From Camelus dromedarius (lineage: Eukaryota): DNA of 64,000 nucleotides. Location: positions 47,926,001 to 47,990,000 of the forward strand of contig NC_087451.1 of assembly GCF_036321535.1 (NCBI RefSeq). Reading direction: 5' to 3'. A program made the position numbers and the translations under genes. Positions 14,199 to 26,896 of the stretch are shown piece after piece; positions within the stretch are counted from its first letter, which is position 1, and every line of letters begins with the position of its first letter. Under the pieces are notes generated by a model. It worked only from the letters and a program-made list of their open reading frames with translations. It made no database searches and was not told the DNA's origin.

Positions 14199-15830
14199 AT
14201 GGTGGGGTCGCCTCAACCCCGAGTTGTCGTCGGGTCTCCACGGCCTCGAGTTATTGTAGGAACTATCCGACCCCGAGTTATTGTAGGGTCTTCGAGGACC
14301 CGGGTGCCTCCAGACGGGACTCCCCGCCCGCATTTGGCGGCCGAGGGGTCTCCCCGACCCCGAGTCGTCTTCGGGACACCCCGGGCCCGAGTGATTGTGG
14401 GTTCACCTCGGCCCCAGGTGACTGTCTCATCCCCGTGGCCCGCGGTGGTCGTAGCATCCCCGAGGCCACGGGCTCCCGCAGGTTCTCCGTGGCCCCGAGT
14501 TATAGTCGGGACCCCTCGGTCGCGGGTGATTGTCGGGTCTCCGCGGGCCCGGATCGCTGGGGCGGATCAGGCCTCAGCGCCTTCTCAGGGCTCCCCGCAA
14601 GGCCGCAGGCAAGATGAACATTCTGGCGCCGGTGCGGAGGGACCGCGTCCTGGCGGAGCTGCCCCAGGTAGGTTGGCGCCAGGGCCACGTCGGGCTTCTG
14701 GCTGCGGTGGGTGTGGGCGGGGAGAAGGAGGCACCAGACGGGTTAGAAGCTTGGGCCCAGCCCTGCCGCCCAGCTAGGCCTGCTGCTTCTGGGTGGTCCC
14801 CTCCCCACCCCCGCCCCGGGCTGCTGGGCATCTGGACTAGGGCCAGGAATGGGTGAGTCCCATTCTCTTCCATCCCTTTCAGTGCCTGAGGAAGGAGGCC
14901 GCTTTGCACGTGCACAAAGACTTCCACCCCCGCGTCACCTGCGCCTGCCGGGAGCACCGGACAGGCACCGTGGGGTGAGTTAGAGACACCCGGAATAAAG
15001 AAAGGAAGTCCCAGAAAAGCTGTAGTCAAAGCAAGGGTACAGAGTCAACAACTTGGGGCTCCATTTCAGCCTCTACCAGCTATGTGGTTATTTCTCCTTT
15101 TCATGCCCCTGTGTTCTTCCCTTTCTTCCAGCAAGGTTGTGGAGAGTGCTCTGAGATGGGGTGGGGTAGAAGGGTGGCAGTTTAATTTCTGACACTGAGA
15201 AGGTGTCCAACACGAGGGTGTGGTCACCAACTCAGCTTCCCACATACCATCTATCTGGACTCCAGGGCAAGTGGTATTGCCTAGAGGGTTGAGTCCCATT
15301 GTAGGTGGAAAAAAAAGAAAGTAGTAGTTATAAAAGTTGGCCACCATTAACTGAGCATTTACTGTGTCCCAAGCTGTATGTTGGGTACTGTTATTGTCCG
15401 TTATTAAATGGAAAACATCTTCACTTTTAAGATGTATCTGATTTCAGAGTTGTTAAAATTGTGTGTGTGGGGGGGGCTATATCTCAGAATATAGGACATT
15501 TATCTCATTTTAACCTTTGCAACAACCCAGTAAAATATATGTTAAATCCCCAGTTAACAAATGTTGTAACTGAGGCTCAGAGAGATTAAGAAATGTGTCC
15601 TAAGTCACACAGCTAGTAAGTGTGAGAGCTGGAATTCAAATTCATGTCTCTCTGATACTGAAGCACAAAACACTCCTCTCCAGCACATCTGTCCAGGCCT
15701 GGTGTCTATGGTAACCTCAGCCTGGGTGCACCTAACTTTGTGGACCTACTATATAGGGAGCATTTGGACTCCTCTGGGTGAAACAGCTAGTGCTCACTCT
15801 TACTGCTCACTCTTGTGTCAGCAGATTTAA
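14199..15830 (+). CDS. NARR: NARR: nine-amino-acid-repeat protein in an alternative frame overlapping RAB34, 188 aa (189 with the proximal NAGNAG acceptor)
   Basis: ATG 14199; segments 14199-14667, 14883-14974, 15825-15830. Repeats of the type RVIVGSPRP, then QGRRQDEHSG..VPEEGGRFARAQRLPPPRHLRLPGAPDRHRGI*. Confidence 0.85.
14217..14546 (+). repeat. Degenerate 27-bp coding minisatellite (NARR repeats)
   Basis: Unit starts at 14217, 14244, 14271, 14298, then after a 33-nt unit 14358, 14385, 14412, 14439, 14466, 14493, 14520. Consensus approximately CCCCGAGTTATTGTAGGGTCTCCNCGG. Confidence 0.9.
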
Positions 15831-19289: not shown

Positions 19290-20330
19290 CAGAGGGTAGA
19301 TTGGGGGCGGGGCTAAGGGTAGTGGCTGGGTTCCGAAGGATTGGGAGGGGCCAGGAGCAGCCCGAAGTGTGAGGTTGAGAGAATGCCTGGGGCGGGGCTA
19401 AGAACGGGGTTAGGGGCGGGGCTAGGGTCTAGGGGTAGGAGTAAGCTGGGAGCAGATCTGGAAAGGAACCAGGGATGGAGTGAGGGCTGGGCCTGAGCGG
19501 CCGAGCTCAAGTTTAGGCCTGAGATAAAGGGGGAGGTGCCAAGGTTAAAGTAGGACAAAGAGGGAGGGGCCCGGAAGGAGCTGGGAGGCCCCGGATGAAG
19601 AGCGCGGTTGAAGTTCTGACCTGGGCTAAAACAACGCAGCCTAGAGCAGGGGGAGGGGAGGGACTGGGCAAGCATGAGGCGGAGCTAAGGGCTGAACTGG
19701 GGCGAAGCTGAGATTGGGGTTTATGGTGGACTCCGTCAAGCTGAGGTTCAGGGTTGGACTTCTGCGAGGAAGAGTCTTGTAGAGACGAAGAACTGGGCTG
19801 AGAGCGATGTGGGTCAGGACGACACTGAGGATTGAAAGGTGGACCAAGGAAAAGACTGAGGACAATGCCAGCTCGTGGGACGAGAGCAGCACGGGTAAGG
19901 AGGGGGCGTGGTACGGGGGCTGGCTTGAGGACACAAGGAGGGTGTGGAACCTGAGAGATCGACGAAGGAGGCGGGGCCAAGGGCTGACAGGGGCGGAGTT
20001 AGGATCTGGGGGCGGGCTCACGTCGAGCCGTGGACCAATGATTGAGGACTAGGGTCCTGAAGTCCTGGAGAACCGCCTGCGGGTTCCGCTGGGGTTGTCC
20101 GGTGGACCCTGGTTGTAAGGCTGGAAGGCGTCTCTGTGCCACAACCAGGAGCCTGAGCCGCTGCCCAAGACGTGCGGGCCTAGGCTGGAGCCCATGGTCC
20201 GGTGATTAAGTCACCGAGGCTGCAGCGGGCGGTTCCATTGACTTTGAGGGCAGGAAGTAGTCTGGAGTTTCCATACGTGACATCACAATCGCCTCCAGAT
20301 GTGGGCGGGGCCAGGGCGGAATTTCCAAGG
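19290..20330 (+). promoter_or_regulatory. GC-box-rich PROCA1 promoter and first-exon CpG island
   Basis: Repeated GGGGCGGGGCTAAG-like motifs around the first coding exon. Confidence 0.55.
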
Positions 20331-23300: not shown

Positions 23301-26300
23301 TCCCTCCTCCCATAGCTCTTCCCACCATTCCCTCCCTGTCTGTGTCTGCTTCACACTACTGTCACCCACTGTTGCACATACCTCTTCTGGGTCCCCCTCC
23401 TCATCCCCTCCCCCAGTGAGGACTGTTGTGTTCTTTTCATCTCTGCATCTCCTGAGGCCTGACACCTTGAGCTTCTCAGGAAATGTGTTTTGAATGAATG
23501 GCATGGGGAGGGGGCTGCTGCTGCTACCACTCTGTGCTCTCTCAGATATAAACAGGTTACCCAGCTGGGAGAGAGGACATCTGTTGGCTGGTGTGGCTTC
23601 GAGCACTGATACATCTACCTTCTCCTCTGAAGGTGGGTCCAGGGGATCTCTGGCCCCAGAGGCCCCCACACTCCTCACCTGGGACGGAGGGAAGTGTTTG
23701 GTCCTGAAGGGGTTACCCAGCTGCTCCACCCACAACCCTTCTCACACCAGAGAGCGGCCCTTCCTGGAGGCCACAATCACTCCTTTCCTTTGTATGGCAG
23801 TTTATGGTACACAAATATCTTTGACATAGGTGAACTGAGCCCTCCCAACAACCCTGCAAAATAGATATTACCACCATCCCTATTTTGTGAATAAGGAAAT
23901 GAAGGCTCAGAGAAGTCATGTAACTTGTCCTAGGTTACCCAGATTGACTTGAAATCAGGCCTGTCTGACTACAAGTTCAGGGCACTTGCCACTCTGCTGC
24001 CCTTTGCCCCAGTTCAGCAGTGCTGAAGAAACCCGAGGTGGTGGTAGTGGTGTTCCAAGGTCCTGCCTCACATGCAGGACTCCTTCTGCCTCTTATTTCC
24101 CTGGGATGGAGAAAGGGAGGAAAGGGGGAGGGTCAGGGGTGTAGGGGGAACCCAGACCCTTCACAGCTGGGCAGGGAGAAGGGAAGGGAGGAGGAGGAAT
24201 GTGGGGAAGGCTCAGATCTGTCTCATCTCTCAAGTACTTTAAGGCCACCTGGACTAACACCACCCTGCCCTGCCACCAGCGTGAGTTAACTCCTGGTGGC
24301 CAGTATGAGGTCTTGCCCCAGTTTCACCCCTTGTAGAGGCTGGATAAATGCACAATCCCCCTGGCCTGTTTGGAGGGAGTCAGTCAGCCATAGTACCTCA
24401 AGCCAGGCTGCCCTGGAACCCATGAGTGCCCTTCCTCCTCAGACTGGGTGGGGCCAGACTCAGGGGAACCTGCAGGATGGTGCCTTGTTCTTTCTGCCTT
24501 GATGACACTTTGGGCACAAGGAGTCACTACGTGGGCTTTTAGATGGTGGTCCGAGGGGAGAGCCATTGGTACACTGAAGCTATAGGCAAGATCAGAGGTG
24601 AGACAGTGGGGGTGGAGGCTGGGAAACGCCAGTATGTGTCCAGGGCTTGTATTCAACTGAGCAGAGGTAGGAAACTTTCTCCAGGCTTTCCCCTAATTCT
24701 AAACCCTCTCCCCAGCAGCTTCTCCCCTGTGCCCTGGGAAAGGGGACACAGTATCTGTGCTACCTACAAGGGGTGGGCTGTTCAAGTCTGTGGCTCTAGG
24801 AACTAGGGAGAATGGATGGGGAACGGAAACTTGATGAGTAAAGAGTAGGGAAAGAATCAATAGAGAGCCTAGGAAAGGGGAAAGAAGTGAGAGAAAGGTG
24901 TCAGAAGGAGAAGAGGCTTGGAGAAGAGAGGAGGAGGGAAAGGGGAAGGAAGAGTCAGGAGGAGAAGCCAAGGAGCATGACGTGCTCCCCTCCAGACTTG
25001 AGCTGGCAGGCTGCAGCAGGCCTGGGGGCTGGAGTGGCTCCAGAGGCTGTGAGGGGTCAGATACAGGCCTCCTGGGCCTATGCAGGACAGGCATAGGAGC
25101 TGAGGATGTTGCTGCTTCTGCTGGCTTTAATCACTGGGGACTCTGAAGTGGTGCTCCCCTCTGCCATAGCAAGAGAGCCGTCCCCTACCCAGGCACTCTG
25201 TGCCGTGGGGTAGGTGACAACTCTGAACAGCCGGGTGAGGGGCTGGCGGGAGTCTGTGGAGGGCCCTGGGAAGGTAGGCTCCCACAGAAGGCAGGGAAGA
25301 GCAAGAGGAAGGTGTCCCAGGGCAGCAAGGGGGACTTGATGAGGACCTTGGTGAGTCTGAGGAGGGGCAGGCAGATTAACGCAGTGGACTGGGGAGAGGG
25401 GAGTCCTGAGAGGGACCGACTACTGGGCTGAGTTACTACTACTCAGCAGTAGAAACAGGTGTCAGGGAGGGCAGAGGTGGTAGCAGGTGAACTAGTGAAG
25501 CCTTTAGTTTGAGCCGTGGGAAGACCCAGGTGTGTTGCTGCTACTGCCTGGGTATGACCCAGACTCCTACCTGCTCAGGTGAATTCAAGGACACTGACAG
25601 GTGCTGCTGGAAACATAAAAAGTGCACCGGGCACATCATCCATCCCTTCACCTCTGACTATGGCCACTACAACCTGCACCTGCACTCTGTCAGCCACTGC
25701 GACTGTGATTCTAGGTAAGGGCCTACTCCTTGGGAAACCTACAGCCTAGGAGACTCCTGGGCAGAGCCAGGGGCAAATTTTCACTTTGGTTCCCCACTCT
25801 GGCTTTGACCTGGCACTGCCAGCCCAGCCCCAGCTTTATAAACGTGTCTTTGCTACAACAGCCATGGGGAGGTCTTTTGGCAGTCTGGGCTGAGCCCTGT
25901 GGAAGCCCGTTGTCCCTCAGCTTCTTGCTCTGGGCCCCTGGGGAGTCATGGAGTCATAGGAACCAGGCTGAGTCCCCTGTGTGGCAGGCTGAAGGACTGC
26001 TCAGAGAAGATAAATAGCAGCTCCCAAGATGTGGGCCCAACCTGCTCCCGAGATGTGGGCTCAGCCTGTTTCAACACCATCCAGTCCCCTTGCTTTGAGC
26101 TCATCCCAGAGGAAGAGTGTGTGGAGCAGTTCTGTTATGGCTGGTGAGTGTCGGCAGGCTGACGGTGGCACTATGGGGCACTTGCCCCCCCACTCTCTGT
26201 CAACCGTCTTTCCCTGTCCTCCTCCCTCCCAGGTGCAAAAGCTACAGGCCTATCTCCGTGGCAGTGATCCACCATCCCATCCACCATGAGTGTGGGGCAG

Positions 26301-26896
26301 ATGACCTCAATGAAGAAGAGGAAGAGGAGGAGGAGGAGGAGGAAGAAAGCAAGCCTCCCATCCCAACCCAGGTGGGGCCCACCACCACACCCACCGACAC
26401 AGGCATGGGCATGGTCACTGGCACCCTTGACTCAGCAGCTCCCATCACCATCTGGCGTTCTGAAAGCCCCACAGGGAAGTCCCAGGGCAACAAGGTGATC
26501 AAGAAGGTAAAGAAGAAAAAAGAAAAAGAGAAAGACAAGGAGGAGGAGATGGACGAAAAGGCAAAGCTGAAGAAAAAAGTCAAGAAGAGCAAGTTAACTA
26601 AGAAGAAAAGCCTGGTTAAATCAGAATCACCTCCAGACTTGATACGATCGTTAAGTCCAAGAGAGCTGGCCAGGATGTCAGAGTCCAGCCCAGACAGCCG
26701 GCCAGACCTGGAAAGTGAGGACAGTTACAATGATCCTGGCCGGGAGGAGCCCTCCAGCGGGGATATTGTGGAGTCATCATCGCCCAGGAAGAGAGAGAAC
26801 AGTAACAAGGCCAAGAAGCCTGGGATGAAGACCTCGCCGGCCAAGAAGGTCAACAAGAGGAAATCTCCCCCAGCATCAAACCCCAATCTCAGTTGA
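19807..26896 (+). CDS. PROCA1: Protein interacting with cyclin A1, 376 aa; degenerate group III PLA2-like core plus poly-Glu and Lys-rich tail
   Basis: Exons: 19807-19894, 23546-23632, 25579-25714, 25988-26143, 26233-26896 (1131 nt, phases consistent). MWVRTTL..NRLPSWERGHLLAGVASST..DRCCWKHKKC..HCDCD..PPASNPNLS*. Confidence 0.93.
21340..22700. mobile_element. L2 remnants in PROCA1 intron 1 (approximate limits)
   Basis: cattcaatcaaccaacatttactgagca L2 end and purine-rich L2 ORF2-like body (ggaggccaggcaggagg..., aagccaaagacagaaccctgg). Confidence 0.6.
23760..23990 (-). mobile_element. MIR remnant
   Basis: attttgtgaataaggaaatgaaggctcagagaagtcatgtaacttgtcctaggttacc. Confidence 0.7.
25106..25234 (+). 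pseudogene. Vestigial signal-peptide / Ca2+-loop exon of an ancestral secreted group III PLA2 form of PROCA1
   Basis: ATG 25106 gives MLLLLLALITG. A shifted frame from 25147 gives SGAPLCHSKRAVPYPGTLCRGVGDNSEQP, then G|gtgagg, a phase-1 donor matching exon 3 (G+GT GAA TTC). Confidence 0.75.

Follow-up and report, generated by a model that had tools for sequence, protein, structure and literature searches.

Bee venom phospholipase A2 (PLA2) and mammalian PLA2G3 are the described group III secreted PLA2s (sPLA2s) to which the locus presented here is closest. The former (PDB 1poc, PF05826) is an invertebrate venom enzyme, while PROCA1 is an ordinary host gene; opossum PROCA1 matches residues 2 to 116 of the bee venom enzyme with an E value of 2.6e-23, and the match of alpaca PROCA1 starts at residue 19 (E value of 5.8e-6). 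PLA2G3 (sPLA2-III) is active in epididymal sperm maturation, and the accessible text of the review stating this, which lists 11 mammalian sPLA2s, leaves PROCA1 unmentioned (PMC7603386). PROCA1 itself is already assigned a PF05826 domain in databases, and the chicken protein is placed in a KEGG lipid pathway, according to two reports (PMC10379444, PMC13234239). Further studies locate human PROCA1 in the cytoplasm and report that it binds ZFP36L2 and cyclin A1-CDK2 (PMC9830831), and describe PROCA1 of boar sperm as a phosphoprotein of unknown function (PMC8322956). In the literature that is openly accessible, subscription papers excepted, nothing was found on PROCA1 as a paralogue of PLA2G3, on an exon swap in placentals, or on a relic exon. 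The PLA2 domain of PROCA1 is known, and pseudo-exons and pseudo-enzymes are known kinds; what the locus contributes is a history made visible, together with an intact, putative enzyme in non-placentals.

The window, that is, the whole 64,000-nucleotide stretch of camelid DNA that was analyzed, contains five PROCA1 coding exons on the + strand, which splice into an intact open reading frame of 376 amino acids with 369 identities to alpaca PROCA1 (P0002). Exon 1 (19807 to 19894) is of the placental type and encodes a hydrophilic N terminus. Exon 2 (23546 to 23632) is likewise of the placental type, is phase 1-1, and lies upstream of exon 3 at the place of the ancestral first exon. Exon 3 (25579 to 25714), which is 100% identical to the corresponding region of alpaca PROCA1, covers positions 23 to 64 of PF05826 and retains the catalytic His, with the following Asp changed to Lys; exon 4 (25988 to 26143) provides the remainder of the PLA2 domain, and exon 5 (26233 to 26896) provides the final conserved Cys, an acidic run, and a Lys/Ser-rich tail. 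Since the Pfam match begins only at position 23 of the 97 profile positions, the spliced protein lacks the beginning of the group III PLA2 domain. Among the RNA contigs, the exon 2-3 junction was seen in two of three runs, as loose ends, the exon 3-4 junction was seen in two, and the exon 3-5 junction was seen in all three. In-frame skipping of exon 4, which is 156 nucleotides long, removes the second half of the PLA2 domain. All three RNA runs show it, as do many isoforms annotated in placentals, which argues against the whole fold being always needed. Just upstream of exon 2, positions 23380 to 23500 resemble what we take to be the 3' end of an L2 element.

Within intron 2 lies the stretch that the original prediction described as a fossil secretory exon. 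An ATG at 25106 with an A at -3 begins the run MLLLLLALITG, as claimed, in a frame that ends at a TAG at 25211 to 25213, and this start is the most hydrophobic among the 1,934 ATGs on both strands of the window; the hydrophobic, signal-peptide-like coding stretch spans positions 25106 to 25146 (+ strand). The neighboring frame, which is the downstream PLA2 frame of the relic, holds a TGA at 25144 to 25146 followed by 29 codons leading to the donor G/gtgagg after position 25234, and this part was borne out as well. The donor is canonical (CGG/GTGAGG), lies 344 bases before exon 3, and is in phase 1 and, as predicted, in frame with the exon 3 acceptor at 25579. This second part of the relic (25147 to 25234, + strand) encodes the end of a propeptide, a KR pair (25171 to 25176), and a PLA2 N terminus with a degenerate Ca loop (25201 to 25215), which reads C-R-G-V-G rather than W-C-G-x-G, the Trp-Cys pair having been lost. 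The N terminus of the spliced camelid protein is hydrophilic and the hydrophobic relic is out of frame, leaving no in-frame N-terminal signal peptide.

The lesions were identified only in part by the original prediction, which attributed the loss to a deletion near the G run at 25136 to 25139 and/or to the TGA. Both landmarks are present, but the break cannot be placed at the G run, as frameshift-aware alignment puts it at 25127, 25148, 25157, or 25172, depending on the template. The ATG at 25106, when compared with longer templates, falls within their hydrophobic region, which may place the ancestral start near 25073 to 25080. Opossum, tammar, and chicken peptides align, weakly, from positions 25073 to 25078, and the interval 25073 to 25105 (+ strand), which includes an ATG at 25080, is a possible decayed 5' part of the exon. 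A 3-codon gap before the donor is a feature absent from the original prediction. The relic thus carries a frame break, a TGA, the 3-codon gap, and, in another camelid haplotype, a second deletion, and its 5' part is more decayed than its 3' part. A duplication of this exon as the source of exon 2 was considered and rejected, with a profile comparison E value of 0.23 and an anchored score of 0; the DNA score between the two was equaled by 16 of 1,000 shuffles.

The search for group III relatives proposed in the original prediction led to an intact orthologous exon in the PROCA1 proteins of other vertebrates. A profile search returned 322 matches, of which the best 120 were listed, and a full HMMER search returned 115. 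By source name, intact PROCA1 is found in opossum, tammar, chicken, quail, sparrow, alligator, a snake, lungfish, and skate, with unnamed or generically named relatives in anole, tegu, frogs, newt, basking shark, and teleosts, including catfish; no monotreme entry is among the named matches listed. The names are those of NCBI, and the orthologues are known as gene models. All 13 picked non-placental proteins have a hydrophobic N-terminal stretch (hydropathy of 2.07 to 3.67, versus at most 0.62 in 52 placental proteins), and 11 of them have an R-x-K/R-R site, of which only the KR survives in the relic. Intact non-placental PROCA1 contains a complete PLA2 domain (PF05826 positions 2 to 96 of 97, at 126 to 133 bits), while alpaca, marmot, and tenrec PROCA1 score 39 to 56 bits with the start missing; the opossum, tammar, and chicken proteins have 10 cysteines. 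The ancestral layout that had been proposed, with a hydrophobic N terminus, a basic site, and a complete group III PLA2, is thus present in non-placental PROCA1 today, for example, in opossum (XP_007485661.1 and P0185), tammar (XP_072495896.1 and P0176), chicken (P0053), skate (XP_055514100.1 and P0179), and snake (P0187) proteins. From their hydrophobicity and motifs, these proteins are predicted to be secreted and to be active group III PLA2s; the AlphaFold model of opossum PROCA1 has a mean pLDDT of 50, with values below 50 in the Ca loop. The expectation that some mammals still express a secreted form holds at the level of gene models for two marsupials but for none of the 71 placental entries.

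With these proteins the relic shares the hydrophobic N terminus, the KR, and the pattern YPGT..G.G..EQ.G ending at the exon 3 junction, and camelid PROCA1 has the same downstream domain and basic tail. In non-placental PROCA1, the exon is unbroken and keeps its frame, the Ca loop has its Trp-Cys, and the His-Asp pair is present in the protein, whereas the camelid relic is broken, 3 codons shorter, and intronic. Between the KR and the donor, 12 of 21 residues are identical to those of opossum and tammar, in addition to the 3-codon gap, and at each of the nine differing positions, a single base change would give a codon for the marsupial residue. Such a match has a probability of 6e-6 by chance, before allowing for the gap having been set at its best position. 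This identity, the null tests described below, and the donor position together confirm that the relic corresponds to the first exon of non-placental PROCA1.

PLA2G3, which is present in the same genome (L008), offers a further view of the exon structure. Its first exon ends with a KR, the Ca loop, and a phase 1 donor (G/gtgag), so that the donor position is common to the relic, and in total three intron positions and phases are shared with PROCA1 (the relic donor, exon 3/4, and exon 4/5). These introns and the PF05826 match show that camelid and placental PROCA1 descends from the group III family. Like the relic, PLA2G3 has a KR before the domain; in contrast, it forms a separate clade (98/95), has long N- and C-terminal domains and MPGT instead of YPGT, and is intact in placentals. 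In the main tree, which comprised 26 rows and used only the domain downstream of the relic, support values were 99/95 for PROCA1, 98/95 for PLA2G3, 88/72 for therians, and 100/100 for placentals, whose stem is long (0.55). Placental PROCA1 falls within the PROCA1 clade beside the marsupials, in agreement with a 45-row tree; placental PROCA1 grouping with PLA2G3 was not rejected by the AU test (P = 0.075), and support for the therian node is not strong. Heloderma venom PLA2 was rejected as a PROCA1 orthologue, as it groups with PLA2G3 (99/88 with Elgaria); three bird PROCA1 fragments (P0128, P0061, and P0092) have been automatically named after this venom protein (PA23, PA4-like). In the 45-row tree, three teleost group III proteins (P0067, P0122, and P0125) belong to neither the PROCA1 clade nor that of tetrapod PLA2G3, and two consecutively numbered loci of the newt Lissotriton encode near-identical PROCA1-clade proteins (P0194 and P0287).

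A resemblance arising by chance within GC-rich intron sequence would be in keeping with some of the searches. The relic frame alone (29 to 40 amino acids) matched no Pfam family and no relevant PDB entry, and a word-based protein search with this frame plus 11 intronic codons, a weak search, gave one candidate and no match. A frame of 29 residues finds nothing on its own in Pfam, PDB, or the protein set, so that proper templates are needed for testing, and tests with single templates reach only a P value of about 0.001. The 26-residue exon end of the genome's own PLA2G3 scored 48 on intron 2, at the relic, which was the top of 64 window tiles and was equaled by 3 of 2,000 simulated introns, and an HMM built from 17 non-mammalian N termini scored 5.8 bits on intron 2, equaled by 4 of 3,000 nulls. 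Against chance stands the coincidence of independent features at one spot. In frameshift-aware alignments to intron 2, first-exon peptides from opossum, tammar, and chicken scored 70, 57, and 68, respectively, versus null maxima of 65, 55, and 55, with none of 1,500 nulls equaling any template, and the best phase 1 GT was that at 25234 with all three. The most hydrophobic ATG of the window lies at the same spot, the relic had an anchored score of 46.5 whereas the highest among 600 random ends was 24.5, the differences from the marsupial residues are all single-base changes, and the relic sits where the missing first 22 Pfam positions are expected. The marsupial comparison and the frameshift-aware null test have already refuted the chance explanation, to which we assign a negligible probability. 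The top ESM Atlas match (0.84) is a lead only, and two loci from a metagenome scan (L009 and L010) were dropped as chance matches in bacterial DNA.

It is very improbable, though slightly less so, that the exon is live in this animal, either through an assembly error or as a minor splice form, and gives rise to a secreted or extended PROCA1. In favor of this are the in-frame, canonical donor, three short cassettes that are formally open in frame when entered at an AG ending at 25177, 25192, or 25213, and RNA contigs of low depth over this region of intron 2. However, the candidate AGs are not preceded by pyrimidine tracts, and the cassettes have no signal peptide. The sampled window words were all present in 14 DNA or unlabeled runs, 12 of which are possible sources, and over the compared span of 24975 to 26225, run X8, which may itself be the source, was identical to the window. 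Another camelid haplotype is carried by three RNA runs, each from a different study. It differs from the window by substitutions at 25154 and 25180 and lacks one base at 25187 (+ strand, 3/3 runs), where the Tyr codon of YPGT is hit by a second frame break; upstream of 25187 it has no compensating indel, and both its reading frames are closed. No junction from 25234 to 25579 was seen in the contigs of these three runs; contigs drop rare forms, so a missing junction is not proof of absence. In run X19, a 1,006-nucleotide contig with a depth of 3.7 covers the part of intron 2 within 24975 to 25606 and extends about 375 nucleotides further upstream; no contig covers intron 3 in this run, and exon 3 has a depth of about 1,059. 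This contig may reflect a retained intron, an intronic start, or DNA.

The relic exon is not the sole loss in PROCA1, an addition to the original prediction, as exon 3 has also lost the Ca-binding Asp. We take the Ca-ligand and His-Asp dyad roles of these residues to be those of their counterparts in bee venom PLA2. The placental set comprised 71 entries, isoforms and 8 unnamed fragments included, from tenrec, xenarthrans, rodents, primates, bats, carnivores, whales, and camelids, and one of these entries is without the catalytic motif. Among the 70 entries with the motif, none has an Asp after the catalytic His (K in 59, R in 5, Q in 3, N in 2, and T in 1), versus 25 of 25 hand-picked non-placental proteins; the His itself is retained. 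The Ca loop motif PGTxWCG was found in 0 of the 71 placental entries. Of the 66 full placental entries, 52 share an MW[VM]RT start, and these 52, the ones scored, are all hydrophilic; the models of the remaining 14 begin differently. Nine cysteines, His69, Asp97, and Asp99 (CDCD) do not vary across an alignment of 11 proteins that includes 4 from placentals. Catalytically inactive sPLA2 homologues, namely, the Lys49 snake PLA2-like proteins, PLA2G12B, and otoconin-90, have the PLA2 fold minus a catalytic or Ca-binding residue, as does placental PROCA1 with mostly Lys at the Asp position. Those homologues belong to other sPLA2 groups and are still secreted, whereas placental PROCA1 has also lost the exon for the signal peptide and Ca loop and has no intact duplicate at the locus.

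The loss of the Asp in all placental entries with the motif, together with its retention in the non-placental proteins, suggests that the switch from the secreted form likely dates to the placental stem. This timing is based on protein annotations, the DNA having been read at a single placental locus and in one related haplotype. The relic and the marsupial exons are separated by a nonsynonymous distance of 0.22, with a wide interval (0.09 to 0.50), from nine changes in about 47 nonsynonymous sites where both marsupials are identical. The neutral distance since the placental ancestor is roughly 0.15 to 0.2; the observed distance fits neutral decay since about that ancestor and is also compatible with a later loss. 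In that case, the same exon would have worked as an alternative first exon into the placental radiation and broken separately by lineage, perhaps surviving somewhere. The relic is still recognizable and has a good donor, the lower bound of 0.09 permits a younger loss, and the deletion at 25187 is recent. We nevertheless regard a later death as unlikely, as the Ca-binding Asp is lost in entries from Afrotheria, Xenarthra, Laurasiatheria, and Euarchontoglires, no placental entry has the Ca loop motif, and the search with the relic frame, albeit weak, found no protein.

We therefore favor, with a probability of roughly 0.87, the explanation that the stretch is the frame-broken remnant of the ancestral first coding exon of PROCA1, likely abandoned on the placental stem for exons 1 and 2. 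The analysis shows its homology, position, splice phase, and lesions, and gene models of intact orthologues exist for marsupials, sauropsids, amphibians, and fishes. The ancestral first exon would have encoded the group III PLA2 calcium loop, preceded by a basic site and a predicted signal peptide. New upstream exons 1 and 2, ending in a phase 1 donor, would have taken over the same exon 3 acceptor, leaving the old exon inside intron 2 to decay about neutrally, and the exon 3 domain would meanwhile have lost its Ca-binding Asp. With the first exon swapped and the Asp lost, placental PROCA1 would be non-secreted and non-catalytic; it is likely that a secreted enzyme was turned into a non-catalytic intracellular protein in placentals by this first-exon swap, and the relic itself most likely does nothing. 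A broader reading, for which we put the odds slightly above even, is that PROCA1 is a second, unstudied group III sPLA2 of jawed vertebrates, active from sharks to marsupials, that, on the placental stem and with no duplicate left behind, was rewired in place to become a pseudo-enzyme inside sperm and other cells, its Cys skeleton and catalytic His being kept for a new binding role and the relic being the footprint of this event.

With the remnant in intron 2, the poorly understood human gene PROCA1 gains a concrete ancestry. Placental PROCA1 is predicted to be no phospholipase, despite its Pfam domain and its place in lipid metabolism gene lists, and the non-placental proteins point to an sPLA2 beyond the 11 given for mammals in the review (PMC7603386), intact in marsupials, birds, reptiles, amphibians, and fishes. 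The locus would also illustrate neatly how replacing a first exon can relocate a protein and abolish its catalysis, with the old exon still legible in the intron.

Two further observations concern the neighboring gene RAB34. A gene model from Scotinomys (P0175) fuses RAB34 to exon 3 of PROCA1, which is probably a modeling error, with read-through into the exon 3 acceptor being possible. Upstream of RAB34 in the window, positions 14199 to 14680 contain an open frame of nine-residue repeats with at least 160 codons without a stop, which resembles what we presume to be the NARR product.
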